This document shows, piece by piece, positions 12,086 to 60,020 of a stretch of 64,000 bases of DNA (position 1 is its first letter; each line of letters begins with the position of its first letter). Position numbers and translations under genes: made by a program. The stretch is from Acidobacteriota bacterium (GTDB lineage: Bacteria; Acidobacteriota; UBA890; WLXD01). The stretch covers positions 256,001 through 320,000 of the forward strand of contig CAXWPH010000007.1 of assembly GCA_963666055.2 (NCBI GenBank), given 5' to 3'. The notes under the pieces were generated by a model. The model did no database searches. It was not told where the DNA came from and saw nothing but the letters and a program-made list of their open reading frames with translations.

Positions 12086-12362
12086 CTAGCAGGCCGTGGT
12101 GAAAGTGTGGTGGGTCTGGTTACGGCGAGTTGGGGCCAGATGCAAGGCAGCCTGACACAGGCGATGCCCTAGCCATCGTCGAGGAAGGCCAACGCTGCAG
12201 ATGGCCCCAAATCGCCGTAACCCTTCGGGCGACAGGGGGTTGCGCGCGTAGGCTGCGTCGTTCCTCGTCAACGATGGCGTAACCATCGCCTCCTCGTCTC
12301 TCCTTGCCTCCACTTTCGCAAGACCCTGTCGCCAGACCCGCCACACTTTCACCACGGCCTGC
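12086..12362. mobile_element. Complete MITE/REP-like palindromic element with 31-bp terminal inverted repeats
   Basis: 12089-12119 GCAGGCCGTGGTGAAAGTGTGGTGGGTCTGG is the inverse of 12332-12362 (1 mismatch). Internal hairpins at 12120-12220 and 12230-12331 flank CCCTTCGGG. CTAG at the left end. Confidence 0.85.
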
Positions 12363-12453
12363 GACGGGCGATGCGGCGACCAGCGGCACCGTAGCGGCAA
12401 GAGCTGCCAAACGGCACATCTGCGTGGTCCCGGTACGTGCTGGAAAATCGTCG

Positions 12454-12471
12454 ACACAATATCGTATACAC
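12454..12471 (-). promoter_or_regulatory. Candidate GntR operator / -10 region of the peptidase-proline racemase operon
   Basis: Reverse complement GTGTATACGATATTGTGT matches GTGTATGGAATATTGTAT (30013-30030, upstream of gntR) at 14/18 positions. Confidence 0.55.
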
Positions 12472-12526
12472 AAAGCAATAGCATCCGCGGCGCTGCGGCG
12501 GCGGCGGCATCGATGTGCCTGGCAGG

Positions 12527-12556
12527 GCAGGCCGTGGTGAAAGTGTCGCCTGCTAG
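12527..12556. repeat. Short collapsed copy of the CTAG repeat
   Basis: GCAGGCCGTGGTGAAAGTGTCGCCTGCTAG. The terminal CTAG contains the stop codon of the GWxTD gene. Confidence 0.8.
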
Positions 12557-14802
12557 CTTGCTCGCTGCGCCGCCTGCGCCCGTTCGAGCGTCGCTCTGAC
12601 GCCGACTTGGCTGTCGTCCAGCGCCAGCGAGCGCGTCAGGATCTCGATGGCGCGCTGCAGATTCGCCGGCTCGCCCGCCTCGTCTTGTGCGAGGTACTCG
12701 GCGGCCAGCGAGTTGAGCACGTCGACGCTGTCGCTACGTTCCAGTACGGCGCGCTCGTAGAAGCGAATGGCGTCGTAGTGCTTCCCTTGTCGCGCCGTGG
12801 CCTCGGCCAGCAGCAGCAGCAGCTCCAAATCGTGCGGAGCATCCACGAGGCGCTCGATGAGGAGCTCCTCGAGAGCCTCGTGATGGCCACCGTCACGGAG
12901 TAGCTCGATTTGCAGCTGCAACGCATCGTAAAGGTCCGGCTCCCGCAACAGGGCGTCGTCGACCAGAGCGATCGCCTCCCCGGTACTGCCGGCGACCCGC
13001 AGGATTGCGGCACGTCGTACCAGCGACCTCGGGTCGGTAGGCGGAGGCGTCGCTGCAGCGTGCACGATGGGGCGCCGAACCTCGTGGCGCACGAAGAACG
13101 GCAAGCTATCCCAGGCGGCCTGGCCAACGATCGACACCGTCAAGGAGTAGGCGCCCGGATCGACGTCCATCGTGATGCCGGTGAGCTGGTTGACGACCCC
13201 GAAACGGTCCACCCCATCGGGCCGGATCGAGATCTGTTTCACGCTGACCATGCGCCCAGCGTCGTCGTGGACCGTGTAGGACACGTTGACAATCTCGGTG
13301 TGCTCCTCCGGTAGCAGCACCTGATGGAACACGTACAGCTGCCCCCCGACGGGGAACGGACCGTCGATCGTGGGGGTCATCGCCAGCTGACCGACCTGGA
13401 ATGGCAGCTGAGCTCCGAACGGATCGTAGGCGGCACCGAGCGGCCGCACATCGGCACACAAGATCGGCTGCCCGAGGGTAACCGACGCAGGATGGGGGAT
13501 GGGGACCAGGGCTGCCGTGCCGATCTCGCCGTACTCGTGGCTGACGTTGTTTTCGAGCACCAGCTCCAGCTGTAAGGATCCATGGATGGCGGGAATCCGG
13601 TCGACGTACATCAGCGACCCGGCGCGGGCGCGCTCGAGCGCACCCTCGGGCAGGCTGCTCTGGATGAGGCGAGGCGGCGGTCCCTCGAGCACGCGTCGGG
13701 CTTCGTCGAGCAAGTACGTCCCCACCGAGAAGGTCATGTAGTGATTGCCCTCGTGCTCACCGAGGTTGAGCCCTGGTCCGGGCGCCCGCGCCACGTAGCT
13801 GACGAACGGCCGACCGTCGGGATCGAGCCAACCGATGGCTCGCGCGTCGATATCGAGAGTTTCGAACCGCACCTCGGTTTCGGTGGCGCCGGTCAGGATC
13901 GGGTACGTCCACTCGATCGTCGGCACCATGAGATCGGGAATCTCGAGAATGTCCCCGATCAGGCTCTCCGACCGGAGGGGCGACCCCAGCCGCGCCTCGC
14001 CCGGAATCAGGCTGAACGCCGCCTCGGCAAGGTCGGGGTTGACCAGCCGCAACAAGTTGTAGGTCCCCGGACCACCGCTGATAAGGCCTCCCATTCCGAA
14101 GCCCTGCTGGCCGAGGCCACCTTGCTGCCGTACCGAGTTGCGACCGGTCGGGTTGAGAAGTCGCTCGGGACCATCGCCGGCGGGACTGTAGAGCTCGAAC
14201 TCGCCCATGCCCTGCTCGCGAAAGAAGACGACGTAGAAAAATGTCGGGACTCCGAGGCGCGGATCCATCTGGTAGAACCAGACCTCCACCGGGTACAGGT
14301 TGGCGTCGTTGTGGTGCCGTGAGCGGGTTTGAGGCTCGCCGAGCAACACGTAGATGCGGCCCATGTCGGTGCGCCAGCCAGGCCCCGGAGAGACGCGGCC
14401 GAACTGACGAGTGGCGTACGCCAGCCGCTCGTAGTGAATCGGAACATACTCGTTGCGCGGCGTCCCCGGGGTCGGGTCGCGACGCTCCCAAAACGCATCG
14501 ATGAACCGATCACGCTTGTCGTCGGAGTCGAGACGCAGGAAAACGTCGCGCTCGGGCTCGGTGATGATCCAGACGACCTCCTCTTCGAGCCAGACACGGA
14601 AACGCTCTGGCAGGTCGCGCGATCGGAGCTTTGGATAGGCACTCAGATCGACCTGATGTGCAGGCAACGCACCGGCGGCCCGGACCGTTGCGCCGACCAT
14701 CGTGCCGAAGCTGCTCAGCCCGATGACGACAGCGACTACCAGGCCGATCCGACCGGCGCGCCGCCCGGCTCCGGCTACCGGGCGCGGAGGACTCGGATGC
14801 AT
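12553..14802 (-). CDS. GWxTD domain protein with C-terminal TPR repeats
   Basis: WLEEEVVWIITEPERDVFL, FWERRDPTPGTPRNE, GWRTDMGRIYVLLGEP, N-terminal signal and TPR tail. Confidence 0.9.
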   Translation of the reverse strand: MHPSPPRPVAGAGRRAGRIGLVVAVVIGLSSFGTMVGATVRAAGALPAHQVDLSAYPKLRSRDLPERFRVWLEEEVVWIITEPERDVFLRLDSDDKRDRFIDAFWERRDPTPGTPRNEYVPIHYERLAYATRQFGRVSPGPGWRTDMGRIYVLLGEPQTRSRHHNDANLYPVEVWFYQMDPRLGVPTFFYVVFFREQGMGEFELYSPAGDGPERLLNPTGRNSVRQQGGLGQQGFGMGGLISGGPGTYNLLRLVNPDLAEAAFSLIPGEARLGSPLRSESLIGDILEIPDLMVPTIEWTYPILTGATETEVRFETLDIDARAIGWLDPDGRPFVSYVARAPGPGLNLGEHEGNHYMTFSVGTYLLDEARRVLEGPPPRLIQSSLPEGALERARAGSLMYVDRIPAIHGSLQLELVLENNVSHEYGEIGTAALVPIPHPASVTLGQPILCADVRPLGAAYDPFGAQLPFQVGQLAMTPTIDGPFPVGGQLYVFHQVLLPEEHTEIVNVSYTVHDDAGRMVSVKQISIRPDGVDRFGVVNQLTGITMDVDPGAYSLTVSIVGQAAWDSLPFFVRHEVRRPIVHAAATPPPTDPRSLVRRAAILRVAGSTGEAIALVDDALLREPDLYDALQLQIELLRDGGHHEALEELLIERLVDAPHDLELLLLLAEATARQGKHYDAIRFYERAVLERSDSVDVLNSLAAEYLAQDEAGEPANLQRAIEILTRSLALDDSQVGVRATLERAQAAQRAS

Positions 14803-14805
14803 GCC

Positions 14806-15864: not shown

Positions 15865-15982
15865 TCTCGAGCCTCCTGGCTCAGGGGCCGTCGGGGCTTG
15901 GCGAACGTCGTTCGGATCGGCCGCGAGGCCGGTAGTATGTTGGTGAGTCTATTGTATCCAGTTACCCGCCTACGGCCTGCGC

Positions 15983-17722
15983 ATGCTACGCCTCTCCATC
16001 TTGCTGACGGTGGCGCTCGCCCAGCCGGGACTCGCCCGGCCTCATGCAGAGCCCATGACCACCGTCCCGGCACAGCAAGTGCTACTAGCGGACGCGACGG
16101 CGAACTCGGGGCTGGCCTTCGAACACCGTCACGGCGGCACCGGCGAGCGCTACATGGTCGAGACCATGGGCTCCGGCTTGGCGCTGATCGACATCGACAT
16201 GGACGGGCGGGTCGACGCCTACCTCGTGCAGCAGGGGGCGACGCCTGGCTTCGTCACCGACGGGCCGCTGATCGATCGGCTGTTTCGCAACGCCGGGAGC
16301 TCGTTCCGCGACGCCACGGCGGCCTCACAGTTGATCGAGGAGGGCTACGGCGTGGGGGCCGCCGCCGCCGACTACGACAACGATGGCTTCCCCGACCTCT
16401 ACGTCACCAACTTCGGCCTCAACAGCCTGTGGCGAAACAATGGCGACGGCACCTTCAGCCGTGCCGACGACGCCGGCACGCGCGATGACCTCTGGGGCTC
16501 GTCGGCCGCATGGGGCGACTTCGATGGCGACGGAGATCTCGATCTGTACGTTGCCAACTACGTCGACTTCGACTGGGACAACAACAAGTTCTGTGGCGAC
16601 GCTGGCCGACAGATCTCGGCGTACTGTCACCCGGACGTCTACAACGCCCTCCCCGACCGGCTGTACGAGAACCGCGCCGACGGAACGTTCGTCGAGATCG
16701 GCGCCGCCGCCGGCATCGACGACCGGATCGATGGCAAGGGGCTCGGGGTGGTCTGGGGCGACTACGACAACGACGGCGACCCCGACATCTACGTGGCCAA
16801 CGACTCGACGCGCAACTTCCTGTACACCAACCAGGGCGACGGCACCTTCGTCGACGACTCCTTCCTTGCCGGCGTCGGCTACAGCGAGGACGGGCGCACC
16901 CAGGCCGGCATGGGGACCGAATTCGGCGACTTCGACGGCGATGGCGATCTCGACCTGATCGTCACCAACCTGACGCTCGAAACCAACACGCTGTACCGCA
17001 ACCTCGGCGACGCGGCGTTCGTCGACCACAGCTACGCCAGCGGGATCGGCGAGCCCAGCCTGCTGCTCGTCGGCTTTGGCACCAACTGGTTCGATGTCGA
17101 CGCCGACGGCGACCTCGACCTGTTCGTCGCCAACGGGCATATCATCGACAACATCGCCGAGTTCCGCGAGGGCGTCGCCGGCTCGGCGCTCGCCGAGCGC
17201 ACCTACCCGCAGCCCAACCACCTGTATATCAACGACGGCAGCGGGCGATTCGCGGAGGTGCATGCCGAAGCCGGAAGCGGCATGGGGCTGGTGAAAGTCT
17301 CTCGCGGCAGCGTCGTCGGCGACATCGACAACGATGGGGATCTCGATGTCGTGGTCTCCAACAGCAATCAGGCGGCCGACTATCTGCGCAACGACACGGT
17401 CAACGGCAACTGGATCCAGCTGCGACTGATAGGCCGCCAGGCCAACCGCAACGCGGTGGGGGCGCGCGTCGAGGTAAGGTCCGCAAGTACGCTTGCCAAC
17501 GGCGCCGGATACCCCATACGAGAGGTTGTGGCCGGTTCGTCGTACGCATCTACCAACGATCTGACAATGCACATCGGACTCGGTGCCGCGTCCTCGGCCG
17601 ACCTGACGATCCGCTGGCCCGGTGGCGACCGCGAGGTACTGCACGACCTCGCCGCCAACCGGCGCTTCGTGGTCCAGCAAGGGCGTGGGGTGGTTGCGTC
17701 GCGCCCGGCGGTGGCTCGCTAG
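15983..17722 (+). CDS. CRTAC1-family protein (FG-GAP repeats + ASPIC/UnbV domain)
   Basis: Repeated DxDxDGxxDL motifs, ETMGSG, QAGMG, SRG...GDIDNDGDLD, and a C-terminal NRNAVGARV...HIGLG...IRWP segment. Confidence 0.92.
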   Translation: MLRLSILLTVALAQPGLARPHAEPMTTVPAQQVLLADATANSGLAFEHRHGGTGERYMVETMGSGLALIDIDMDGRVDAYLVQQGATPGFVTDGPLIDRLFRNAGSSFRDATAASQLIEEGYGVGAAAADYDNDGFPDLYVTNFGLNSLWRNNGDGTFSRADDAGTRDDLWGSSAAWGDFDGDGDLDLYVANYVDFDWDNNKFCGDAGRQISAYCHPDVYNALPDRLYENRADGTFVEIGAAAGIDDRIDGKGLGVVWGDYDNDGDPDIYVANDSTRNFLYTNQGDGTFVDDSFLAGVGYSEDGRTQAGMGTEFGDFDGDGDLDLIVTNLTLETNTLYRNLGDAAFVDHSYASGIGEPSLLLVGFGTNWFDVDADGDLDLFVANGHIIDNIAEFREGVAGSALAERTYPQPNHLYINDGSGRFAEVHAEAGSGMGLVKVSRGSVVGDIDNDGDLDVVVSNSNQAADYLRNDTVNGNWIQLRLIGRQANRNAVGARVEVRSASTLANGAGYPIREVVAGSSYASTNDLTMHIGLGAASSADLTIRWPGGDREVLHDLAANRRFVVQQGRGVVASRPAVAR

Positions 17723-17837
17723 CGCCAGCCGGAACGCGGCAGCCTTGGGGTAACTCCCTTCTTCGTGTTTCGAAGATTCCATACACTTGCTCGCAGCGCC
17801 CGCCCAGTCGTGTCTTCCGCCGCAGGAGCAACCTCTG

Positions 17838-20633: not shown

Positions 20634-20643
20634 CGCCCTGGTC

Positions 20644-22122
20644 TTATGTCCGTGACTCGCCGCTAGGGCATGCTCCCGGAGCCTCTCGTAGAATGGCCCA
20701 CACCGCTGGCCCCAGAACCATGCCCTGCCGGCGCGCCGCTTCCCAAGCGGTCCGTGCCTCCTCGAAGCGACCCGCCGCATAGAGGGCAAGCACCCAGGCG
20801 CGATGCCACTCGACAGTGTCCGCTCCCTGGGCTCGCGCATTCTCCAGATGGCCGGCGGCGGCCGAGGGATCGCCCGACATCAGCAGCGCCCGGGCCAGCC
20901 CAACGCTGGCGCCCATGTCCAGCGAATCGATCTCTAGCGCAGCTCGATACTCGCGCTCTGCGGTGCTTGCATCGCCCGCCAGCCGCAGGTACTCGTCGCC
21001 CAGCTCACGATGCTCACGACCGTCCGAGAGCTTCTTGAAGGTTCGCAGGTGAGCCACACCGTCGGGGTCACCGCGTCGCTGCAGGACCGTGCCCAGGTCG
21101 AAGTGCCCCTGGACGTTGCGCGGCGCTACCTCGAGAAGCGCTCGGGCAACCTGCTCGGCTTCGTCGAGCCTGCCGAGCTTTATGAGGATCTTGGCCTGGA
21201 GTTCTAGCGCACCGACGCGCAACGCACCGACGCCGTGCTCGAGCGTCGTTGAAGCGCCGGCAATCGTCGCGATCGCCTGTTCGATCACGGCAAGCGCTTC
21301 CTCGCCACGGCCCTGATACAGCACCGCCTCGGTGTAGGGCAGCTGCACGGCAGGGTCGCCCGGCCTCCGGCGCAGGGCTTCCTGGAGGACCCTCTCGGCG
21401 GCCTCGAACCTCTGCACGTTGAACAGGTGATACCCGAGCGCCACCCGCCCGGCCACGACGTCTGGGGCCAGATCGACGGCTCGCCGGTAGGCCGCTTCGG
21501 CGGCCTCGTTGTCGAACGCCGCGGCAAGCGCATCGCCGCGGCGCTGCCACAGCCCGGGGCGCTCGGGGTCGATCTCGATGGCGCGCGCCAACCACTCGGC
21601 CGCCTCACGAGCGTTGCCCGCCTCCGAAGCGAGCTCGGCGGCCCTCAGCTCCGGCCCTGTCCACCGGGGGGTGACGGCGGCGAGATCCTCTAGCCTCCGC
21701 CGTGCCTCGGAGACGGCACCGATGCGATAGCAGACCTCGGCGCGTTGGTACTCCGCCGGCCGCAGATCCGGGCGCGACTGCAGCGCCAGCGTCAGCTCGG
21801 TCCAAGCGTCGGCCCATCGGTCTTGTGCGAATCTGACCAGCCCGAGCTGGTATCGCACCGCGCCCGGGTCAGCGCTCCCCGGAAGCGCCGACTGCAGCTC
21901 GCCCGCGGCCCGCTCCAGCTGGCCGACCGCCAGCAGGGCCCGGCCTAGGTGAAAGTGCGTGGCGGAGCTTTCCGGATCGAGGCGCAGCGCCTCCTCGAGC
22001 TCGACAATGGCCTCTTTGGCCTGGTTCTGCTGCAAGAGGTCGACGCCGCTGGCCAGATGCTCGGCCGCCGATTGACCGAGCCCCCCCAGCAGGCCCGCGA
22101 CGAGAGCCCAGCGCAGCATCAT
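20644..22122 (-). CDS. Secreted TPR-repeat protein
   Basis: Signal peptide and tandem TPR motifs. Start overlaps the stop of the upstream CRTAC1 gene. Confidence 0.85.
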   Translation of the reverse strand: MMLRWALVAGLLGGLGQSAAEHLASGVDLLQQNQAKEAIVELEEALRLDPESSATHFHLGRALLAVGQLERAAGELQSALPGSADPGAVRYQLGLVRFAQDRWADAWTELTLALQSRPDLRPAEYQRAEVCYRIGAVSEARRRLEDLAAVTPRWTGPELRAAELASEAGNAREAAEWLARAIEIDPERPGLWQRRGDALAAAFDNEAAEAAYRRAVDLAPDVVAGRVALGYHLFNVQRFEAAERVLQEALRRRPGDPAVQLPYTEAVLYQGRGEEALAVIEQAIATIAGASTTLEHGVGALRVGALELQAKILIKLGRLDEAEQVARALLEVAPRNVQGHFDLGTVLQRRGDPDGVAHLRTFKKLSDGREHRELGDEYLRLAGDASTAEREYRAALEIDSLDMGASVGLARALLMSGDPSAAAGHLENARAQGADTVEWHRAWVLALYAAGRFEEARTAWEAARRQGMVLGPAVWAILREAPGACPSGESRT

Positions 22123-23846
22123 TGCGCCGACCGCGCCACGACGCCGTAGCGCTCGTCGACCACCAGCCGGCCGGGCTGTTGCTCCGGTAGCCGCAAGATC
22201 TCGCCACCTGGCCAGCGGATCTCGACGGCTTCTGCTACCCCGGACGGGAGATAGAACAACAGCCGGGCATCGTTGGCGCCGGCGTAGCCATCGCTGTCGC
22301 GCAGCTGAATCCGCTGCTCGATGGCGCCGGAGCGCACGACCACGTCGGCTCCGTAGCCGGAGCGGTTCGATCGGCGGCCGACCAGCGTGATCCTCAGCGC
22401 CGCGTGCGCCATCGACGTGTCGTTGCGGATCAATGTGGGGCGCGCATCGATGTTGGTCACCAGCAGATCGAGATCGCCGTCGTTGTCGAAGTCACCTCGT
22501 ACCGCGCCGCGCGACGACTCGCGGATCGCCAAGGCGTCGCCGGCCGTCGCAGTCACCGTTGTGAAGTCGGCCGCGCCCGACTCGCGCAACCGGTTCACAT
22601 ACAGCGAGTTGAGCTGCCGGTACGGCTCGATGCCGCGCTCCGCGACAGCTGGGTGGATGTGGCCGTTGGCGACGAACAGATCCTGATCGGCGTCGCCGTC
22701 GATATCGAGAAACAGTGCCGACCACCCCATGTACGGAAAGCTGCTGGCCGCCAGCCGGCGCAGGTCGGTCTCGTCCTGGAAGACGCAGTCGCCGAGGTTA
22801 CGGTAGAGCGTGTTGTGGTCGTTGTGGAAGTTGGTGACGTACAGATCGAGCCGCCCGTCACCGTCGAAGTCGGCGCTGGTCACCCCCATGCCCGCCTGCT
22901 CGCGACCGTCGGCGCTGTACCCGGCGCCCGACAGCAGTCCCTGCTCGTCGATCTCGCCAGCGGGAGTGTGCCGGTACAGGAGGTTCATCATCGAGTCGTT
23001 GGCGACGTAGATCTCCGACAACCCGTCGTCGTCGCAGTCGATCGCAGCCAGCGCCAGCCCGTACCCAGCGGCCTGATCGACGCGGTCCGACATCCACTCG
23101 ACGAAGGTGCCGTCGGCGAGATTGCGATACAGGAGGTCGCGCTGCCCGACCAGCCCCTCGGGCCCGCAGAACGCCTCGACGCCCGCATAAGAGCACCGAC
23201 TTTCTCCCCGCGACGGCACCGAGGTGGCCTGCAGATCCACGTAGCGAGCCACGTAGAGGTCCAGGTTGCCGTCCGCATCCCAATCCGTGAAGGTGGCGCT
23301 GGCGCCCCAGCCGGGATCCTCCACCCCGTTGGACCAAACCGCAAAGGTCCCGTCACCGTTGTTGCGATACAGCCGGTCGGCGCCGATGGCGGCGATGAAC
23401 AGGTCTGGCCAGCCATCGTTGTCGACGTCGCCCCAGGTGACGCCGGTGCCCCATACGACCTCGCGTACTCCGGCGGAGATCGGCGCCTCGCGAAACGTCT
23501 GCCCATCGCCGCGGTACAAGCGGTGTCCCGCGCCGCGGCGGCCCGCGGCCAGTGCCGGGTGGGGGGCCGGTTGAGCGATCTGCACGGTGGATCCCGTCGC
23601 CTCGGACAACGCGTTCACCAGCACGACGTCGAGGTTGCCGTCGACGTCGAAGTCCAGGAACGCCGCTCCGGACCCGGTCGACTCGGTGATGTAGGACTTG
23701 TCGAGGCTGCCGAAAGTCTGCACCAGGTCGAGGCCTGAGTTGGCCACCGCACGCAGGTCCAACGCCTGGGCAGGCAGCCCCGCCGGCGCCACAGTGAGGG
23801 TCAGCGATGCCGCCACCAGGAGCCGCCCGCCGGGGCTAGCCGCCAT
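22119..23846 (-). CDS. CRTAC1-family protein (FG-GAP + ASPIC/UnbV), second paralog
   Basis: ESTGSGAAFLDFDVDG, EQAGMG, SSRGAVRGDFDNDGDLDL, SNRSGYGA...IRWP. Confidence 0.9.
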   Translation of the reverse strand: MAASPGGRLLVAASLTLTVAPAGLPAQALDLRAVANSGLDLVQTFGSLDKSYITESTGSGAAFLDFDVDGNLDVVLVNALSEATGSTVQIAQPAPHPALAAGRRGAGHRLYRGDGQTFREAPISAGVREVVWGTGVTWGDVDNDGWPDLFIAAIGADRLYRNNGDGTFAVWSNGVEDPGWGASATFTDWDADGNLDLYVARYVDLQATSVPSRGESRCSYAGVEAFCGPEGLVGQRDLLYRNLADGTFVEWMSDRVDQAAGYGLALAAIDCDDDGLSEIYVANDSMMNLLYRHTPAGEIDEQGLLSGAGYSADGREQAGMGVTSADFDGDGRLDLYVTNFHNDHNTLYRNLGDCVFQDETDLRRLAASSFPYMGWSALFLDIDGDADQDLFVANGHIHPAVAERGIEPYRQLNSLYVNRLRESGAADFTTVTATAGDALAIRESSRGAVRGDFDNDGDLDLLVTNIDARPTLIRNDTSMAHAALRITLVGRRSNRSGYGADVVVRSGAIEQRIQLRDSDGYAGANDARLLFYLPSGVAEAVEIRWPGGEILRLPEQQPGRLVVDERYGVVARSAQ

Positions 23847-33418: not shown

Positions 33419-35116
33419 CTACCTAGCAGGCCGTGGTAGAAGTGTGGCGGGCCTGGCGGCCGGGTGCCCTATCGAGTCGAGCCACGCCTCGGCATGACCG
33501 TAGAGCCGCCCGTAGTAGTCAGCGAAACCGGCGGCGGTGAGCGGCTCCCATACATCAGGGACGGCGGGATTGCCCTCGAGAATCTCGCCGTTGGGCCGAA
33601 TCGTGTGCCCGATGCTCCACATGAAGCCGATCACCGGTTGATCGGTGCCCGGAAACACGAGCTCCTCTTGCCACTCCCAGGTGTTGGAGTATCCGCCTGC
33701 CGGCATGCCGATGATCGGACCGAGATCGTTGTCCGCGACGATGGAGTTGAACTGATCTAGATGGGAGCCTCCGTGCGGTCCGCTGATGACCACCAGCGGG
33801 CCGGTGAAGTGCAGCGCCGCAGGCTCGAGCACCCCGTTGGAGTCTTTCGGTGCGTGCGCCAGCTTGAAGGGTACCGGCACCGTCGTCGTGTCGCCGCGCG
33901 CCAGCCCCGCGATGACGTCGTTCTGCAGCCAATCCAGCAGCCAGGTTCCGTCATCGATCGTCTCGGGGGAGCTGCCCTCGAGCAGCGCCCGTGCGTCGAG
34001 CTCGGCCCGCTTGACCGCAATGAACGGCTCGATCACGTCGGACAGACGCAGCGTGCCGAAGGTGGTCTTGAATGCCCGCGGCTGCAGTCGTTGCAGGGCG
34101 TACGGGCCAAGCGAGCCACCTCGACTTCGCGTCACATCGACGATCAGCGCGTCGTCGAGCCAGCCTTCCTGCTCGGCTCGGGCCACCAGCGTGTCAACGT
34201 CTTCGACCAGCGTGGCTCCGAAGCCCCACCACACCAGGATGGCGATCTTGCGCCCGTCCTCGGACCGCAACAGATCATAGGTCGGCGTGCTGCCGACCCG
34301 AGTGAATCCGACGTACGCTGGCTCGGCGAGGTCGCGCCATGCCAACGCCTCGGGGTCGTGGTAGCCGAGGGTGACAGAGTAGAAGCGGCCGTCGCCATCC
34401 TCCAGCATCAGCAGCAACTCCTCATCGACGAGGGTGGGGTGCAGCACGCCGGTTCGCCGCGGGATGGTGCTGGCGATCTCCCAGCGAAGGCCGGCGGCAC
34501 TGGAGTAAGGAATGTACGGCGTGGCGAGCTCGACGTACTCGGAAATGTGCAGGCCGTTGATCTGCACAATCCGATCGCCGGGGGTGATGCGAAGCGCCGC
34601 TTCGTAGCCATCAGCGATGTCGCCGACGAAGTAATCCCGGGATCGGTGGCTGTAGTCGGGGAACACGCGGATCGGCGCCTGCCTCGGGGTCGCCGTCTCC
34701 AACTCGCCCATGGTGGGGAACCCATCGGTGAGCTCCGGCGAGAGCCCCCCGGGGACGAGCATCACCGACAGATGCCGATCGCGGCGCGCCGCGCTCAGCC
34801 GCGCCAGCGCGTAGAAGAGCTCGCTCTCGGTCTCCGCCCCGACCACCGCGTCGCGCTCGCCGCGCATGGCGCGGATGGGATCGAAGTCGAGCGCACCGTT
34901 CTTGATCGGCGAGAGCGCCTCCCGATCCCTGGTCTTGGAGATAATCGCACTGAAAAGCGCCGTGCGTTGCTCTGCAGTGCCGACCGCTGACGTCAGCGCT
35001 GAGCAGCCGGATGCGCTCAGCGCACCGGCGAGCGCGACGATGAGGCAGTGTCGGGCGACAGGCAACGGTGCGTTCACCTCCGCATCGTACTGTCGCGCGT
35101 GGCGCGGCGTCGACAT
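33419..35116 (-). CDS. Lipoprotein with PDZ-like and S41/tail-specific-protease-like domains
   Basis: Lipobox ASGC, PGDRIVQING, LIVDVTRSRGG, FTGPLVVISGPHGGS, ILEGNPAVPD. Start estimated at MSTPR. Confidence 0.7.
   Translation of the reverse strand: MSTPRHARQYDAEVNAPLPVARHCLIVALAGALSASGCSALTSAVGTAEQRTALFSAIISKTRDREALSPIKNGALDFDPIRAMRGERDAVVGAETESELFYALARLSAARRDRHLSVMLVPGGLSPELTDGFPTMGELETATPRQAPIRVFPDYSHRSRDYFVGDIADGYEAALRITPGDRIVQINGLHISEYVELATPYIPYSSAAGLRWEIASTIPRRTGVLHPTLVDEELLLMLEDGDGRFYSVTLGYHDPEALAWRDLAEPAYVGFTRVGSTPTYDLLRSEDGRKIAILVWWGFGATLVEDVDTLVARAEQEGWLDDALIVDVTRSRGGSLGPYALQRLQPRAFKTTFGTLRLSDVIEPFIAVKRAELDARALLEGSSPETIDDGTWLLDWLQNDVIAGLARGDTTTVPVPFKLAHAPKDSNGVLEPAALHFTGPLVVISGPHGGSHLDQFNSIVADNDLGPIIGMPAGGYSNTWEWQEELVFPGTDQPVIGFMWSIGHTIRPNGEILEGNPAVPDVWEPLTAAGFADYYGRLYGHAEAWLDSIGHPAARPATLLPRPAR
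33423..33465 (+). repeat. CTAG repeat end overlapping the 3' end of the S41-like gene
   Basis: CTAGCAGGCCGTGGTAGAAGTGTGGCGGGCCTGGCG, a close match to the element TIR. Confidence 0.85.
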
Positions 35117-35130
35117 GGCGTACCCTCGAT

Positions 35131-35210
35131 CTAGCAAGCCGTGGTGGAAGTATGGCGCGCCTGGCGACAGGGTCTTGCGAGGCAGACGCGAGAACGACAA
35201 GGAGGAGCGA
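35131..35210 (+). repeat. Partial CTAG repeat between divergent genes
   Basis: CTAGCAAGCCGTGGTGGAAGTATGGCGCGCCTGGCGACAGGGTCTTGCGA aligns with the reverse complement of ~12285-12362. Confidence 0.85.
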
Positions 35211-37460: not shown

Positions 37461-39501
37461 ATGGCGACGATCGAACGCTCGAAGACAACGTGGATGAAAC
37501 CTGCGATATGCGCCGCGGTCGCGGTCACCCTGTCCCTGCTGTCGATGCCTGCGGTCGGCCAGAACGGTGCGCCGAACATCGGCACCGAGAACGGTGAGTG
37601 GCGTCACTGGGGTGGCGATATGTACAGCACGCGCTACTCGCCGCTCGATCAGATCAACGCCGACAACTTCAACGACCTCGAGGTCGCCTGGGTGTGGCGG
37701 GGCGACAACTACGGTCCCTCGGTGGACAACATCATGCGCTCCACGCCGACCTATGTGAATGGAGTGCTCTACACGGTCGCCGGTCAGCGGCGCACGGTCG
37801 TCGCTATCGACCCGGCCACCGGCGAGACGCTGTGGACCTACCGCGAGCCCTACACGCCGCGCTGGGAAGCGTCGATGCGGAAGAACTACGGCAAGGGTGT
37901 CGGGTACGCCAACATCGACCGCCGCGGTGTGATCTACATGATCTCGCCGGGCTTCTTCCTGCACGCGCTCGACGCCGTCACTGGAAAGCCAATCGAGCAG
38001 TTCGGTAACGAGGGCACCGTAGATCTGCTGGCGGACTTCGGCTATCCGTACGATGCCTGGGAGGGACTCCCCACCGACGTCGGCTACATCACCAACTCCT
38101 CGCCGCCGATGGTGGTCAACGACGTGGTGGTGGTAGGCAACTCGCACGAGCAGGGCTACCGGCAGACCCGACGCGAGAACGTGCCCGGGCACGTGCTGGC
38201 GTACGACGCGCGTTCTGGCGAGCACCTGTGGAAGTTCAACGTCATTCCGCAGCCCGGCGAGTTCGGCCACGAGACCTGGGAAAGCGATGCCTGGTCGTAC
38301 ACCGGCAACGTCTCGGCTTGGGCACCGATGGCCGCCGACCCGGAGCTCGGGCTGGTCTACTTCGCCACCGACCCACCGACCAACGATTACTGGGGAGGCC
38401 ACCATCCCGGCGACAACCTCTTCGCCACCTCGATAATCGCCGTCGATATCAAGACGGGTGAGCGCCGCTGGCATTTCCAAACGGTGCACCACGACATCTG
38501 GAACTACGACAACCCCACTGCGCCGAACCTCGTCGACATCACCGTTGACGGCAAGAGGATTCCGGCGCTGGTACAGACCACGAAGCAGAGCTTCGCCTAT
38601 GTGCTCAACCATGAGACCGGCGAGCCGGTGTGGCCGATCGAGGAGCGCCCAGTTCCAAGATCGAAGATACCGGGTGAATACACTTCGCCGACGCAGCCCT
38701 TCCCGACCAGGCCGGCGGCGTACGAGATGCAGGGTGTCACCGAGGACGACCTGATCGACTTCACACCACAGCTCCGGCAGGCGGCGATAGAGATGCTCAG
38801 CGAGTACGAGCTCGGGCCGCTGTTCAACCCACCGCTGCACCGCGACAACGACCTGGGCCTCAGAGCCTCGGTCCATTGCCCGGGAGGCAACGGTGGCACC
38901 AACATCCCCGGTGGCGCGGCGGTCGACCCCGAGACCCAGATTCTCTACGTCGCGTCTACGAAGACTTGCTCCGCGCCGACGTTGATTCCAGGCAGCGAGG
39001 CAGATGCCCACGATCCCAACCCGATCGGCAAGACGGTCACGGCGTGGGCCAGCGGACCGGGCTTTGGGCCCGGTGGAGTCCAGGGACTGCCCTACCTCAA
39101 GCCGCCCTACGGTCGCATCACCGCGATCGATCTGAACACCGGCGAGCATCTGTGGTGGATTCCAAACGGCGACACAACCCGAGTCGATTACCCATCACCC
39201 GGCACTGCAAGGTCTCGACATCCCCAACACCGGCAGGCCGTCACACGCCACCAAGGTGATCACCAAGACACTGCTCATCTACGCCGAGGGCCGCCGCGGC
39301 GCTCCACTGTTGCACGCGGTCGACAAGCTCACCGGCGAGCGGCTCGGCACGGTGGATATCCCGGCGCAGAGCAACAGCGCGCCGATGACCTACATGCACG
39401 AGGGCAGGCAGTACATCGTGCTGCCCATAGGTGGGCCGGCCCACTCCGGTTCGCTCGCCGCCGTGGCGCTACCTACCGGACAAGCCCAACCGGAGCACTA
39501 G
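37461..39501 (+). pseudogene. PQQ-dependent dehydrogenase (glucose/quinate type) with a +1 frameshift near 39177
   Basis: TRYSPLDQIN, HFQTVHHDIWNYD, KPPYGRITAIDLNTGEHLW. Removing one A at ~39177 restores GDTPESITHHPALQGLDIPNTG...PMTYMHEGRQYIV to the TAG at 39501. Confidence 0.85.
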
Positions 39502-39522
39502 CAGGCCGTGGCGGCCTGCTAG
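39498..39522. repeat. Minimal palindromic CTAG repeat between convergent stops
   Basis: CTAGCAGGCC-GTGGC-GGCCTGCTAG, a perfect 10-bp stem. Confidence 0.9.
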
Positions 39523-42712: not shown

Positions 42713-42745
42713 CTAGCAGGTCGTGATGGAAGCGTGGCCTGCTAG
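42713..42745. repeat. Short degenerate CTAG repeat
   Basis: CTAGCAGGTCGTGATGGAAGCGTGGCCTGCTAG. Confidence 0.85.
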
Positions 42746-49950: not shown

Positions 49951-49952
49951 CG

Positions 49953-52694: not shown

Positions 52695-52697
52695 AAC

Positions 52698-53435: not shown

Positions 53436-53590
53436 GCGGCCTGCCTCGTAGCCTGGCCACCAGCCACCACCGCTCCGACCGGCGATCGACGATCGACGAC
53501 CAGACCCGTCGGAGCGCGGTGGAGGACGCCACGGTACGATGGGCAAACATCCGCATCTCGCGCGAGCGCCTACGACATTGTCGTCCTGTC

Positions 53591-54442
53591 ATGGAGATCG
53601 TCCGACACCTCGACGCCACCGCGTTTCTCCATCGGGCCGAAGTATGGCTGCGACAGGCTGAGGCAGAAAACAACCTGGTGCTCGGCATCGCCCGGGCGCT
53701 GATCGGCGGCGACCACCCATACCGGGATCCCATCTACCTGGCGACGGTCGAGGACAACGGCAAGGTGTGCGGCTGCGCCTTTCGTACGCCGCCCTACAAG
53801 CTCGCGCTGACGCGCATGCCACCGGCAGCGATCGACGCTCTGGTCGAGAGCATCGCCTCTCTGTATCCCTCGATACATGCGGTTGGCGGGCCGGAGTCCA
53901 CCGCAAACCGGTTCGCTCGGGCCTGGACACTGCGCCAGGGGATCGAGAGCGAGGTGTCGATGCGCAACGGCATCTATGCTCTCGACAGTGTCGTCCGCCC
54001 GTCGTCACCACCCGCCGGCTCGATGCGCCAGGCGTCGGGTTCCGACCTGGCGCGCCTGAGTCAGTGGGCACACCTCTTCGTCGAGGAAACTGGTGTAGAG
54101 CACCCCGACCCGGCCGAGCTGGCGGCTCGGCTCCTCGAGCAGGGAGCGATGTACGTATGGGAGGACGACTCTGTCACCTCGATGGCGGCGGCGATGGACC
54201 CCACGCCCACCGGTATTCGCATTGGCTATGTCTACACGCCGCCAGAAGCACGTGGCCTTGGCTATGCTTCGATCCTCGTCGCCAAACTCAGCCAGCTGCA
54301 CCTCGATCGCGGCTGCAGCTCGTGCTTTCTGTACACCGACATGGCCAACCCCACATCGAACGCCATCTACCAGCGCATCGGCTATCGGCAGGTGTGCGAG
54401 GTCGTGGACATCGCCTTCCGTCAACGCGCCATCTCTCACTAG
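53591..54442 (+). CDS. GNAT family N-acetyltransferase
   Basis: EAENNLVLG, VYTPPEARGLGYAS, LYTDMANPTSNAIYQRIGY. Confidence 0.92.
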   Translation: MEIVRHLDATAFLHRAEVWLRQAEAENNLVLGIARALIGGDHPYRDPIYLATVEDNGKVCGCAFRTPPYKLALTRMPPAAIDALVESIASLYPSIHAVGGPESTANRFARAWTLRQGIESEVSMRNGIYALDSVVRPSSPPAGSMRQASGSDLARLSQWAHLFVEETGVEHPDPAELAARLLEQGAMYVWEDDSVTSMAAAMDPTPTGIRIGYVYTPPEARGLGYASILVAKLSQLHLDRGCSSCFLYTDMANPTSNAIYQRIGYRQVCEVVDIAFRQRAISH

Positions 54443-54529
54443 TGTGCTGTCTCCGATGAGGCTTCTCCTTGCCTCCACTTCGCAAGTCCCTGTCGCCAGA
54501 CCCACCACACTTTCACCACAGCCTGCTAG
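54439..54529. repeat. CTAG-bounded composite repeat filling a convergent intergenic space
   Basis: The right part is near-identical to ~12299-12362. Both terminal CTAGs carry the stop codons of the flanking genes, and the left end CTAGTGTGCTGT resembles 41679. Confidence 0.9.
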
Positions 54530-55839
54530 CGCAAGGTGGCAGCCAGTCGACGCAGGCTGGCCTCGTCGGTATCCGCGCGCAGCCACACCAGGTAGCCACG
54601 CCGATCCCGCCAGCGCAGCATGTGGTCGCCGTTCGGGTGAACACTGAACACAGCAGTCTCCAGGCCAGACCTGGCGCGCCCTCCCTGGCGCCGCGGAGCC
54701 GCGAGCTGACGGAACTCCTCAGACGCATCCAAGACATCGAGATCTGCCGCCGCGTCCGCCATTGATCCCACGTACTGCTGCAACAGGGTGACCTGAGCGC
54801 CGCCTTCGAGCACATAGCGATGCCGCAGCACCGGGCGACCGCGAGTCGCGTCGGGGAGCCCGCCCCCGGGACCCACTGACACCTCCACCGTGCCGGTGCC
54901 GACGAACTGCAAAGGTGGGGCCCCGAGCCAGTCCTCGGCGGCCAGCGCGTCGATCGCGGTCAGTGTGTCGCTCGCCGTCAGCTCGTCGCCCGCACGAAAG
55001 TCGCGAGACACGACGGCCGCTTCGGCCTCCAACCGGGACCGAGCGCTGCTCGCCGAGGCGGTCACTGGCGCGGGCGCTGGCAGGCGGCCCGCCGCGAGCC
55101 GATCTTCCTCGCGGTCGGCCAGCGCCAGCCTCCGTTTCTGGAGGTCCGCTAGCGCGGCGCCGCCACGCACCTCGCCAGAGACAATCTCGTCTGGGCGAGC
55201 GGCGGCGCGCAGACCTTCCCCGACGCCACCTGCGGATCGAGCCACTGGTGACAACGGCGCGGGCGCGGCGGCCCGCTCTGCACGTCGGGCTGGCTGAGCG
55301 GCGGCGATGTCGTCGGCCACCTCGTCAACCATGGCGGCAAGCGACGGCGCGGGTTTAGTGGCCTGCGGCGATTGTTCGAGGCGGTTGTCGGGCACCAGCT
55401 CGACTGTGCTGGTGGGCGGCGCCAAGGTGCCTTCGGTGAGCTCCGCGGCCTGCTCCTGCGTCGGTTCGGCCAGGCGAATCTCCGCTGACCGATTCGACGC
55501 CCCGGGCGCAAACTCGCGGTTGGCCTGCCACCCGAGCCCGAAGGCCAACACCAGCGTCGCCGCCCAGGCGAGATCACGCCGCCAGGTGCGCGCTGATCGC
55601 GGTGCCGGTAGGACGCCCTGGCCGGCCCGATCGAGCATCTCACGCCACCCGGGTGCCTCCACCTCGGGCGCCAGCTCGCCCACCAGCTGCGCCGCTAGCG
55701 ACCTGGTTGCGGCGGCGTCCTCAATCAGCAAACGACACGATTCGCACCCGTGCAGATGGCCTTCCAACGCGAGGCGCTCGGCCGCCGTGCACTCGCCGTC
55801 CAGGTAGGCATGCATCCCTCCCTCGTCAACGTGCGGCAT
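54526..55839 (-). CDS. Zinc-finger (ZAS/zf-HC2) transmembrane anti-sigma factor
   Basis: AYLDGE...HLHGCESC (HxxxCxxC), TM LAWAATLVLAFGLGW, directly downstream of the sigma gene. Confidence 0.85.
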   Translation of the reverse strand: MPHVDEGGMHAYLDGECTAAERLALEGHLHGCESCRLLIEDAAATRSLAAQLVGELAPEVEAPGWREMLDRAGQGVLPAPRSARTWRRDLAWAATLVLAFGLGWQANREFAPGASNRSAEIRLAEPTQEQAAELTEGTLAPPTSTVELVPDNRLEQSPQATKPAPSLAAMVDEVADDIAAAQPARRAERAAAPAPLSPVARSAGGVGEGLRAAARPDEIVSGEVRGGAALADLQKRRLALADREEDRLAAGRLPAPAPVTASASSARSRLEAEAAVVSRDFRAGDELTASDTLTAIDALAAEDWLGAPPLQFVGTGTVEVSVGPGGGLPDATRGRPVLRHRYVLEGGAQVTLLQQYVGSMADAAADLDVLDASEEFRQLAAPRRQGGRARSGLETAVFSVHPNGDHMLRWRDRRGYLVWLRADTDEASLRRLAATLR

Positions 55840-56326: not shown

Positions 56327-56382
56327 GCGTTACTCCTGGGTGCCAGGGGCCCGACTGGCGGGCTCCCGGCTCCCAACTCCGG

Positions 56383-58752
56383 CTATCGAGCTTCGGCTGC
56401 AAAGGCGCGGCTTAGCAACGACCAGTCGGCTACCCCCAGTGGAGCACCGCCCGACTCGATGCGAAGCACCAACCCCTCACCCGCGATGATAACGCCCTCA
56501 CCCAGCGCCAAGGCGGGCTTCAGACCGGGGAACTGCCGATGTAACTCGAACCAATCGCGGCTGTACGACGCTACGCTGATCGCCGGCAACCCGGAGGCGG
56601 CGCGCACGTCGCGCAATCCATCGGCGGTTTCGACGAACAGCCGCCTTCCGACGCGCCGCCAGCTCGATGCCTTGCTCAGCCGACCGCCCAGCGCCGGTGC
56701 GGCCGCCAGGATTTCATCGGCCTCGCTCACCGATGCCGCAGCGCGCAGTCGGCTGCTGACCAGCGCCTGGCGCAGCGCCGTCTCGCCGGTCTGCTCGGCC
56801 GGCGGCAGAGCGAAACGCCGGGCGCGACGCTGCGCTTCCTCGCGATCATCGGCCAAATGAGGCTCTTGCACCAGATAGGAGGTGTACTCGGTGAGCACGC
56901 CATATCGCAGACCCAGCGTCCGGATCTCCTCGATCAGCTCACGATCCGGGCCGTGCAGACGCAACTGCGCGGTCAGCGCGCCGACCTTCCGCGACGCCCA
57001 GATCCGCGCCACGTACTCGTTGTCGCGCTGCCGGTGTGGAAAGTCGACCTCGAACGTGAACCGCTCGCGCCTGCCAGCACGCTCGCCCTCGAGCACCAAG
57101 CTACCGACACCACCACCGCGGTAGCGGCCGGTAACCACGAGCTCCTGGCCATGGAACAAGTCGGGCAGCGGGCCCGGGTGAAGGTCCTCGATGGTGGCCG
57201 GCGCCGAGACAATACGCAGATCCGACAATACCGGAGCACCGATTCGGCGGCCGAGCGCGGCAACCGCGCGCTCGACGCTCTCGCCCGCACGCACGTAATC
57301 GACGGTGCCTCGGCCCGCTTCCACCAGACGATCAAGCAGGTAGGTGTTCACATCGTCGCCCACACCGAAGGCAAAGACTCTCTCGCCGTCTCGTAGCTGC
57401 TCCGCCGCGGCGCTGATCCGCACCGGGTCGGTCTCACCCACTGTCGGCAGGCCGTCGGTAAGAAACAGCACCATCGTCAACCGACCCTCGACCACCTGTG
57501 GCTGCAGCGCCGCGCGCAGCGCACCGTCGATGTTGGTGCTGCCATCCGCCGGCACGCGGTGCAGGTACTCGATGGCAAGCGCGACGTTCTCGGGACTGGC
57601 CGGCAGGTAAGCGGGCTCGTACGAGCGCACCGCGCTAGAGAAGGTGATCAAGCGGAAGCGGTCGTGTAGGCGCAGGCCGCGTAGCACCTGCTCGAGAGCC
57701 GAGCGCGCCTGTTCGATCTTGTGGCCCGCCATCGATCCCGACACGTCGAGCACGAGCGAGACATCGCGAGCGATGGTCGCCGTGGTCTCCGCCGCCGGCG
57801 GGTTGAGCAGCAGCAGGAAATATCCATCCTCGTTGCCGGGATCCGGAGCATGCGCCAGCAGGCTGGCGCCGATGGTGGAACCGAGCCGCGGCAAGAGCAG
57901 CTCGAAGGCGGCACCGCCCGTGCGACGCTCGTTTTCGAGCAGGCGCACCTCGACCAGGTTATCGTCACGACGAACGACGTCGATCGCATCGGTGGGCGAA
58001 TACGGGGTGCCCAGCATCGAGGCGTTCTCTATGCGTACGTGCACCACCGATGCCAGCGCCGGGGCGGTCGGCATTATCGGGCGTCGGATATCCGTCCGAG
58101 GCTCCGGAAATCTCTCGGGGCCCTCGCCGCGCAGATCCATCACGCTGGCCGTACGCGGGAACCGCATGCGCAGCGCGTCGCCGAGCAGCGGCAGCACCTG
58201 CGTATAGCGCAGGATGATGCGGCGCGTACCGCCCGGCTCGATCGGAAACACGCGGGCGCGGATAAGGTCGTGGCCGGCAAGCTCGACCAGCGCCGGATCG
58301 CGCCGCTTGCGCACGATCTCCTCGTAGATTGCCCTCGCCTGATCGGCCCGCAGCATCTCGCCCCGCATCTCGTTCTCGCCAGCGAACAGGGACAGGTTGT
58401 GAAACACCGCACCGCGCGGAATCGCGTACAGGTAGTCGCCCTCGAGAACGCGGCCGGCGTTGTTGCGGAACTCCTCGAGCACCTCGAAATCGGCGAGACG
58501 AGTGCGCGCGTCGATTCGGATGGTGACCTCGCTGCGCACACGCTCGACCATCGCATCGACTAGCGGGCGGATCGGCGTGGCCACTCGAGCGGCGAACAGC
58601 CTCGAAACGCCATCGCCGGACGCGCTGGACTGGATCGTCGCTGGCGAGACGGCGGCGGCACCGAGAAGCGCCGGAAACACCACGAGCGCCGGGAGCCAGG
58701 CGCGGCGCGTTGGCCGTTTCGGGCGCCGCGACGAGCGATGTCTGGAAGTCAT
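56383..58752 (-). CDS. Exported VIT + von Willebrand factor A domain protein
   Basis: VIT segment (ARAIYEEIVRKRRDPALVE), MIDAS DVSGSM...GSTNI...TDGLPT, YGVLTEYTSYLV. AGGAG before ATG 58752. Confidence 0.9.
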   Translation of the reverse strand: MTSRHRSSRRPKRPTRRAWLPALVVFPALLGAAAVSPATIQSSASGDGVSRLFAARVATPIRPLVDAMVERVRSEVTIRIDARTRLADFEVLEEFRNNAGRVLEGDYLYAIPRGAVFHNLSLFAGENEMRGEMLRADQARAIYEEIVRKRRDPALVELAGHDLIRARVFPIEPGGTRRIILRYTQVLPLLGDALRMRFPRTASVMDLRGEGPERFPEPRTDIRRPIMPTAPALASVVHVRIENASMLGTPYSPTDAIDVVRRDDNLVEVRLLENERRTGGAAFELLLPRLGSTIGASLLAHAPDPGNEDGYFLLLLNPPAAETTATIARDVSLVLDVSGSMAGHKIEQARSALEQVLRGLRLHDRFRLITFSSAVRSYEPAYLPASPENVALAIEYLHRVPADGSTNIDGALRAALQPQVVEGRLTMVLFLTDGLPTVGETDPVRISAAAEQLRDGERVFAFGVGDDVNTYLLDRLVEAGRGTVDYVRAGESVERAVAALGRRIGAPVLSDLRIVSAPATIEDLHPGPLPDLFHGQELVVTGRYRGGGVGSLVLEGERAGRRERFTFEVDFPHRQRDNEYVARIWASRKVGALTAQLRLHGPDRELIEEIRTLGLRYGVLTEYTSYLVQEPHLADDREEAQRRARRFALPPAEQTGETALRQALVSSRLRAAASVSEADEILAAAPALGGRLSKASSWRRVGRRLFVETADGLRDVRAASGLPAISVASYSRDWFELHRQFPGLKPALALGEGVIIAGEGLVLRIESGGAPLGVADWSLLSRAFAAEAR

Positions 58753-58895
58753 GGTGTGTCTCCTGTTGTGTGGGTGGGGGGTCAAAATTTCCTGAACCAA
58801 CCCTGAGACGCACGAGCGCACCAAACTTGCACACCGCGGGAGAAGGAACCCGGCCCTAGGCAGACTGCGGCCACTGGACCGGATACCCTGAGGGC

Positions 58896-59438
58896 GTGAA
58901 TGAAACGACGACGTTGGGTGGCGGCTGTTTCTGGTGCCTGGAGGCCGTGTACAACGAGCTTTCGGGCGTCGAGGCGGTGACGTCGGGCTACGCCGGCGGC
59001 CATGCTGCGGACCCGACCTACGAGGAGGTCTGCACCGGCTCCACGAACCACGCCGAGGTCATCCGCGTCGAGTTCGACCCCGAGATCATCTCCTACGGCG
59101 AAATTCTCGAGGTCTTCTTCGGCGTCCACGATCCGACGACCCTCAACCAGCAGGGGGCCGATGTCGGCACCCAGTACCGGTCGGTGATCTATTACGAGAC
59201 CCCGGAGCAAGGGGAGCTGGCGACAGAGATCATCGCTCGACTCCAAGCCGAGAGCGTGTTCCCGCAGCCAATCGTTACCGAGGTGGCACCCCTCGACACG
59301 TTTTACGCCGCCGAGACCTACCACCTCGACTACTACGCGCGGAACACCGGCATGCGCTACTGCCAGGTGGTGATCGGGCCAAAGCTCGCCAAGCTGCGCA
59401 AGCAGTTTGCCGCGAGGCTGAAAGAAACTGCCCATTGA
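58896..59438 (+). CDS. msrA: Peptide-methionine (S)-S-oxide reductase
   Basis: GGGCFWCLE, PTYEEVC, HDPTTLN.QG.DVGTQYRS. Confidence 0.97.
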   Translation: MNETTTLGGGCFWCLEAVYNELSGVEAVTSGYAGGHAADPTYEEVCTGSTNHAEVIRVEFDPEIISYGEILEVFFGVHDPTTLNQQGADVGTQYRSVIYYETPEQGELATEIIARLQAESVFPQPIVTEVAPLDTFYAAETYHLDYYARNTGMRYCQVVIGPKLAKLRKQFAARLKETAH

Positions 59439-59995
59439 ACCAGGTTCAACAAGCGCTCAACGCGCGCACCACGGTTCACAAGTACAGGCCGGGGCCGGTT
59501 CCCGAGGGCTGCATCGAGCGCGCACTCGAAGCTGCGCTCGCCGCGCCTAACCATCGCATGACCGAGCCATGGCGGTTCGTGAGCGCCGGAGCACAGACAC
59601 GCGAGCAGCTGAGTGAGATCGCGCTGCAGCTCAAGGTCGCCAAGCTAGGCGATAGCAAGCAGTTGCGCCGGGTGATCCGCGCCAAGTTCCTTGATCCCGC
59701 GCATCTGATGGTGGTGTCGCAGGTGCTCGAGCAGGACCCGGTGATGGCGCGCGAGGACTACGCTGCCATCGCCTGTGCCATCCAGAACTTCATGCTGTCG
59801 CTGCACTCCGAGGGCGTGGGGTCGAAGTGGAGCACCAGCAAGGTGATCCAACAATCCGATACCTATCGCATCCTGGAGATCGATCCGGAGACCGCGGAGA
59901 TCGTCGCGTTCATTTGGGTCGGCGTACCGGCTCAGGTACCCACCAAGCGTGCCCGGAGCCGCGATCTCGCCGGGCTGTGGCGCCAGCTGCCCTAG
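59435..59995 (+). CDS. Nitroreductase family protein
   Basis: TTG overlapping the msrA stop, RTTVHKY, AAPNHRMTEPWRF, CAIQNFMLSL...WST. Confidence 0.9.
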   Translation: MNQVQQALNARTTVHKYRPGPVPEGCIERALEAALAAPNHRMTEPWRFVSAGAQTREQLSEIALQLKVAKLGDSKQLRRVIRAKFLDPAHLMVVSQVLEQDPVMAREDYAAIACAIQNFMLSLHSEGVGSKWSTSKVIQQSDTYRILEIDPETAEIVAFIWVGVPAQVPTKRARSRDLAGLWRQLP

Positions 59996-60020
59996 CAGGC
60001 CGCGGTGGAAGTATGGTGCC
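59992..60020 (+). repeat. CTAG repeat end at the nitroreductase stop
   Basis: CTAGCAGGCCGCGGTGGAAGTATGGTG. Confidence 0.8.

Follow-up and report, generated by a model that had tools for sequence, protein, structure and literature searches.

The window analysed here comprises 64,000 nucleotides of an Acidobacteriota genome (GCA_963666055.2, contig CAXWPH010000007.1; G000:C7:256001-320000, G000 being the genome under study and G001 to G004 relatives of the same genus), in which a CTAG-ended repeat lies at eight sites in and between protein-coding genes. One of these sites is a full copy, and the other seven are remnants, of a 279-bp transposable element of the miniature inverted-repeat type (MITE) with 31-bp terminal inverted repeats (TIRs). 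All eight positions proposed in the initial annotation were recovered: seven scored 26-45 bits with a weight matrix of the terminal repeat, and the eighth (39498-39522), too short for the matrix, was read directly. The full element, described there as about 275 bp long, does exist at 12086 and measures 280 bp (12086-12365) with a decayed right-hand word, while a CTAG at 54439 that had been counted as an end of the family belongs to a different CTAG end. We likewise saw no transposase among the 28 window proteins scanned (some overlapping, and a part of the open reading frames).

Copies abound beyond the window. BLAST with the copy at 12086 returned 684 matches, with 87 near-full copies in the G000 genome. 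The terminal-repeat matrix found 425 ends of at least 18 bits genome-wide, whereas the reversed genome had no end scoring that high, so the repeat ends are not due to chance. The 116 paired copies (two ends no more than 600 bp apart) are mostly 277-280 bp or ~175 bp long, and every TIR position through 25 is conserved in 79-100% of 174 ends. At 279 bp and 87 near-full copies the element is short and multi-copy, as MITEs are, and a transposase gene would not fit within it. Matches to the family were present in 22 of the 41 genomes searched, comprising 9/10 and 11/15 in the two families of the order and 1/15 beyond it. The copies are young, nearest neighbors being mostly 2-10 substitutions apart, and copies in G002 are as distant from those in G000 as the latter are from each other. 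No copies were found in viral contigs by end-pattern search or in plasmids by blastn. Rfam, a check proposed in the initial annotation, gave no match in the window at gathering score and only chance-level matches around the element, and a scan of 12000-12600 for promoters and intrinsic terminators found none. A single contig from an RNA run overlapped the element in a right end only, which speaks neither for nor against expression.

Insertion converts one CTAG into CTAG-element-CTAG, so that a TAG stop codon in the target is restored and the encoded protein stays the same. For eight of the 87 near-full copies the insertion site is the internal CTAG of a further copy, the host element forming their left flank, and two of these keep the host on both sides, which implies that one CTAG has been turned into two. 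For 21 distinct copies in G002 or G004 the orthologous G000 site could be located; five of these sites have a clean single 4-bp word (three CTAG, one CTGG, and one CTAC), one is shared, and the others are remnants or ambiguous. Empty orthologous sites, which the initial annotation had suggested looking for, were also found for window copies, namely 12086 in G001, 54526 in G002 and G003, and 59992 in G001. The duplication typical of MITEs is thus seen against a single CTAG in both empty sites and nested copies. Flanking words are CTAG on both sides in 89 of 116 pairs in G000 and 35 of 45 pairs in the relatives.

Searching 26 genomes of the order for DUF772 led to an insertion sequence in G011, a related genome of the same order that also holds the MITE. 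This 1505-bp element is present in four copies encoding an identical protein, and its two ends are identical to the MITE repeat at 21/21 and 20/21 of the first 21 bases. The 472-aa transposase matches DUF772 with 69 bits and the IS1182 model with an E value of 2.5e-46. Across 17 homologues 19 acidic residues are invariant, D151, D296, E358, and E361 being four of them, and the predicted DDE triad would be drawn from these four; no relative with a solved structure was found. Homologues with 55-64% identity occur in several phyla, and 58 of 78 homologous loci (many of them from few genomes) have related TA/CTAG-bounded ends spaced 1.45-1.55 kb apart. The transposase frame itself (L109:1327-2745) extends across the right repeat and takes its stop codon from the TAG within the element's terminal CTAG, as do those of several homologues. 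Judged by the shared ends, an IS1182-like DDE transposase likely mobilizes the 279-bp MITE in trans, which supports the earlier proposal of a non-autonomous element with an IS5/IS1182-type partner. A real MITE family with a likely IS1182-like mover is the best explanation of the data as a whole, and we consider it probable.

Several observations nevertheless weigh against this explanation. The G011 transposase scores 158.6 bits compared with a curated cut-off of 270 for NF033551, still its best family, and we therefore call it IS1182-like. No cognate transposase was found in G000 by tblastn and six-frame hidden Markov model (HMM) searches, despite the young copies, nor in four other genomes of the genus, and yet MITE sites mostly differ between G000 and G002. 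The insertion sequence presumably made passing visits. Fifteen of the 21 orthologous sites above are neither clean nor shared. Only 1 of 37 MITE pairs with words other than CTAG/CTAG is matched, so that a strict 4-bp duplication is poorly supported; the outermost base is also the most variable (24 of 322 ends), and both features fit a TA duplication with G and C as the ends of the element. Related insertion sequences do show three matched 4-bp words, and one empty site is CTGG, leaving the duplication at 2 or 4 bp.

The more unusual feature of the element, unmentioned in the initial annotation, is its conserved interior, which consists of two homologous, inverted hairpins of ~87 nt facing each other. 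Both sides have changed at 37 of 82 pairs in 28 copies from nine genomes, and at 21 of 25 pairs in 35 modules, a level reached in 0 of 500 shuffles and far above that of slid controls, with the proviso that counts of this kind can be raised by kinship among copies and by hairpin-templated repair. Unpaired purine words in the module are invariant. G-T exceeds A-C in the stems (28 vs 6 and 29 vs 4), a hint of strand specificity that is biased by how the fold was chosen. The 285 module matches in G000 divide by end type into 209, 22, 21, 7, and 1, with 25 unassigned; 22 stand behind IS5-type and 28 behind IS630-type ends. Elements with three different end types have lengths of 279, 278, and 279 bp, their interiors being 62-72% alike (48% when shuffled) and their ends 38-70%. 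IS5-type and IS630-type ends can therefore flank the same core, which is kept by compensatory changes. Of 121 genomes of the phylum, 46 contain matches to its covariance model under strict filters, among which many additional end types are seen, and model R1 found 147 matches in a Binatia genome and none in four of five genomes of other groups. No core was found inside 16 insertion-sequence loci, except in an adjacent MITE.

Some hairpins and elements related to the core deserve separate mention. Three hairpins of G000:C14 (L265, L266, and L267) are longer and stand on their own, one of them in tandem copies; their outer words are those of the module, and no insertion-sequence ends were seen. 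The only core match in G006 (L309:1489-1600) is a hairpin without terminal repeats directly behind the transfer-messenger RNA (tmRNA) gene. G140 has many copies of a ~165-bp single-module element with IS630-like ends (L318-L332), often stacked with other CTAG elements. The 5.1-Mb genome of G007 shows a very large expansion of insertion sequences, with 146 DUF772 and 43 IS630 matches. There, an IS630 element with a 363-aa transposase has its CTAG in common with a MITE end in eight of nine loci (L073, L080, L083, L086, L088, L090, L092, L093, and L094), compared with 0/6 loci for a second IS630 family and 1/22 for sister IS5 copies, and may home on MITE ends. A composite IS630-MITE unit was rejected, the MITE lying on either side and in either orientation.

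Sharing of CTAG in G007, together with a G002 remnant with IS630-type ends on the same CTAG as the window end at 35131, provides a visible route for end swapping. We suggest that the core is an old structured cassette that would have changed its ends, and hence its transposase, several times, probably because elements with a common target word insert into the ends of one another. As a fold of one strand, either in transcripts or in unwound DNA, the core would probably help a copy to spread or to be tolerated.

If instead the hairpin core, not the ends, were the mobile or recognized unit, some host or mobile enzyme would read the fold and the ends would be passengers or helpers. Such a unit would explain why the core persists at a constant total length whatever the end type, why core-like hairpins without terminal repeats exist (L265, L267, and L309), and why no cognate transposase was found in five genomes of the genus, of which four have many copies. 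We regard it as unlikely, given boundaries that are exact at the terminal repeat and CTAG, ends that match a real insertion sequence, and the many short two-ended derivatives without one or both hairpin modules. In addition, Y1/RAYT transposases were found in only 1 of 26 genomes of the order and not in G000, and the 26 genes lying between facing ends in G000 (nine spans of <6 kb) are ordinary or without assignment, with no transposase among them. Cross-recognition by an IS630-family or sister IS5 transposase, both of which also use CTAG, merits still less credence. IS630 is present in G000 and G002, its copies adjoin MITE ends in G007, a TA duplication fits the MITE pairs, and sister IS5 ends match the first 8 bases, but IS630 was found in only 8 of 26 genomes of the order and its ends match other end types around the same core, whereas the 21-base identity points to the IS1182-like clade. 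The IS630 ends of G000 differ from the 31-bp repeat, and the MITE is therefore not IS630-derived in the manner of the RUP repeat. The 8-copy IS5-type element of G000 was also discarded as a mover, being TTAA-bounded with unrelated ends.

The association with stop codons raises a further alternative. Using gene calls from our own hexamer model and, for occupancy, counts made after removal of other repeat ends, we found that 58 of the 116 paired copies adjoin a stop compared with 606 of 4941 other CTAG sites, in agreement with the enrichment over CTAG background supposed in the initial annotation. CTAGs at stops are occupied in 56 of 543 cases (10.3%) and intergenic ones in 60 of 1572 (3.8%; odds ratio 2.9, p 8e-8), and the excess also holds within convergent and tandem gene classes. 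One orthologous gene has independent copies at its stop in G000 and in G004, and where neighboring genes are in tandem the right end is more often than the left the one that transcription enters (35 vs 10 in G000, 11 vs 1 in G004, G003, and G001, and 6 vs 3 in G002, in sum 52 vs 14 for the genus; 31 vs 10 for copies at stops). True targeting of stops, for example by translation-coupled access, or a 3' regulatory hairpin kept by the host could produce these patterns, and is to our minds the least probable of the readings. CTAGs no more than 30 nt from a stop are occupied at close to the stop rate (14/169; 8.3%), three other genera lack the orientation bias (6 vs 6; small samples), and a fixed host role is at odds with the turnover of sites between close relatives.

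We attribute the stop-codon habit mostly to the target word combined with selection or tolerance at gene ends, because CTAGs just behind stops are similarly occupied and because stops pre-date the insertion wherever they were checked against empty sites (two genome-wide, and 54526 and 59992 in the window). Since a CTAG target rebuilds TAG, overlap with stops is ordinary. Copies inside genes would be purged and those just behind genes best tolerated, giving a stop excess without stop targeting; the absence of occupied CTAGs inside genes (0/2710) is in part a weakness of this account, being partly built in, as an insertion would split the gene call. Of the two options in the initial annotation, preferential insertion or survival at stops, survival thus fits better. 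Gene ends are remodeled as it proposed, albeit rarely: four genes genome-wide read 9-13 nt into an element end, and one case in the window (33419) was checked against orthologues. Deletions would leave solo ends and short palindromes, occasionally adding a few codons to a gene. In this genus, the element read left end first finishes with a long tract that is rich in C, poorly paired, and contains CCTCC words; as a guess, this tract could disturb the following gene, either via Rho or because it pairs with the ribosome-binding site of that gene. No citable paper on ribosome stalling at stop-proximal hairpins came up in the literature search.

Effects of the copies on the window genes are summarized below together with the feature coordinates (table 1). 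The terminal CTAG, previously given as the stop of a neighboring gene or remnant at five copies, has this role at four (12553, 39498, 54526, and 59992), the position at 42742 being unconfirmed as a gene end. In the GWxTD gene (12553-14802, minus strand; 749 aa) the remnant-borne stop comes one codon earlier than in G001 and G002, and the gene at 33419-35116 (minus strand) owes ~12 C-terminal residues, missing in the G002 and G001 orthologues, to an element end. The remnant at 39498 contains the stop of a pyrroloquinoline quinone (PQQ) dehydrogenase gene at 39499-39501 and adjoins that of the minus-strand gene at 39523-39525. The stop at 54526 is already there in the empty G002 and G003 sites, and the nitroreductase orthologue of G001 has the same stop and no element.

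Table 1. Features of the MITE family in the window.
Feature	Position	Strand	Evidence and remarks
Full copy, CTAG to decayed right word CGAC	12086..12365	+	280 bp; site empty in G001, partly deleted in G002
Left TIR, 31 bp after TA	12089..12119	+	With CTAG, first 21 bases identical to left end of G011 IS1182-like element
Left hairpin module (ERIC-like core)	12127..12213	+	Covariance model R1, 84.5 bits; covariation
Internal CTAG in loop of left module; target for nested copies	12169..12172	.	Nested copies genome-wide
Right hairpin module, inverted homologue of left module	12237..12324	-	R1, 65.2 bits; module alignment
Right TIR	12332..12362	-	Terminal-repeat matrix
Collapsed two-ended remnant; its CTAG carries stop of GWxTD gene	12527..12556	.	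Direct reading; comparison with G001 and G002
Solo end inside last codons of gene 33419-35116 (-)	33423..33456	+	Orthologue comparison
Truncated end and start of right arm, between divergent genes	35131..35178	+	G002 comparison
25-bp palindromic remnant between two convergent stops	39498..39522	.	Direct reading; orthologues
33-bp collapsed remnant; stop role not confirmed	42713..42745	.	Direct reading; matrix
Right-end fragment; CTAG at 54526 is stop of gene 54526-55839 (-)	54462..54529	-	Matrix; empty sites
Solo end on stop of nitroreductase gene 59435-59995	59992..60018	+	Matrix; G001 comparison

The idea that the element provides the cupin gene at 35215 with its ribosome-binding site was dropped as unsupported, G002 having the same site behind a different remnant; the site may be core-derived in both genomes. 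The CTAG end at 54439-54461, which is IS630-type-like, forms the stop of a GNAT gene, and at this position G002 has CTGG and a GNAT gene ~25 codons longer. The PQQ dehydrogenase (37494-39569) has a 3'-proximal frameshift relative to its G002 and G001 orthologues, reflecting either an assembly error or a pseudogene, and its true C-terminus is at 39501. Elsewhere in the window, a 702-aa serine hydrolase (39523-41631) contains a class C beta-lactamase-like domain scoring far below family cut-offs, and two genes on opposite strands (15983-17722 and 22119-23846), which we take to be FG-GAP-like, encode repeated D-x-D-x-D-G-D units that are the source of most of the long repeats.

A possible relationship of the core to the enterobacterial repetitive intergenic consensus (ERIC) was tested on 12 ERIC loci of Escherichia coli K-12 (36 kb) with a model trained without ERIC, to whose training set three longer hairpins had been added after the idea arose. 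The three best matches all fell on ERIC and on the same strand (31.6, 20.5, and 18.8 bits), followed by a fourth at 11.9, compared with 13.4 for the best non-ERIC match. Eight of the 12 copies were missed and the inner part was skipped in the matches; a linear HMM of the module missed all 12, and a strict search of the whole E. coli genome gave no match. The resemblance is thus weak but well placed. Copies of ERIC in E. coli can be aligned weakly, in the same strand sense, with the two invariant words of the module and with its outer stem, and a published ERIC consensus is printed with the same two words (PMC2759123). L265 to L267 have an inner part nearer to ERIC in length. ERIC, also known as IRU or RU-1, is described in enterobacteria as a TA-bounded hairpin repeat near genes (PMC2759123, PMC2229807, PMC3184786, PMC3049150), and orientation-dependent transcript effects are reported for repeats of this type (PMC3049150). 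Whereas ERIC is 127 bp long with one longer module and short repeats, the present element has 279 bp, two shorter facing modules, and long ends derived from an insertion sequence, and therefore falls outside the single-module ERIC definition.

Among other known systems, MITEPsy1 of Pseudomonas syringae, a 100-nt IS5-type MITE with a CTAG or YTAA target for which a 4-nt duplication and mobility are shown (PMC3189936), is similarly gene-less, has terminal repeats in common with an IS5-superfamily element, and is moved in trans; it differs from the 279-bp MITE with its 31-bp repeats, two structured modules, IS1182-like partner, and pairs that fit TA better. RUP, for which IS630-Spn1 is the proposed mover, has a TA target and often lies in or next to insertion sequences (PMC2229807); target and proximity are alike here, although the ends match the IS1182-like element and IS630-type ends are found on sister elements with the same core. 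The G011 element itself resembles the IS1182 family in its DUF772 and DDE domains, protein of ~470 aa, length of 1.5 kb, and inverted ends, and departs from it in scoring below the NCBIfam cut-off and in its strict CTAG target. Stem-loop replacement, described for IS1272 (PMC5678879), was not seen at the clean empty sites.

For GTAG-type repetitive extragenic palindromes (REPs) and pneumococcal BOX elements, two papers state that the ends often provide the stop of the flanking gene, with no strong evidence of truncation given there, and read the 3' enrichment as tolerance (PMC3733652, PMC3049150). This MITE has the same stop overlap and enrichment at 3' gene ends; REPs, however, are 20-40 bp long and go with Y1/RAYT enzymes, and since none of these was found in G000, the element is not of the REP/REPIN kind. 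Overlap with stops is thus already known, and the common conserved core with its probable end swapping is the new part. The MITE cores of Neisseria, E. coli, and Anabaena are said in a review to show no similarity (PMC3184786). Our literature search found no description of this family or of a core common to end types; its scope excluded most subscription journals and ISfinder, and it left aside the MITE lists of PMC11602168, which could hold this family.

What is unusual is the presence of one covarying core inside the ends of unrelated transposase families at near-constant length. Should this be real, small non-autonomous elements can switch the enzyme that mobilizes them while keeping a selected structure, and with a candidate transposase whose element has identical ends, tests of the MITE's mobility and of the core's role become possible. 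We tentatively propose, as a possibility somewhat short of even, that many bacterial MITEs including ERIC form an old superfamily with a strand-specific folded core, bound by a conserved factor, and ends of IS1182-like, IS5, and IS630 type swapped at a common CTAG. If this is true, the 279-bp element would be a version with two cores, for which a transposase has been identified and which shows an orientation bias, and would offer a tractable system for the function of the ERIC core.

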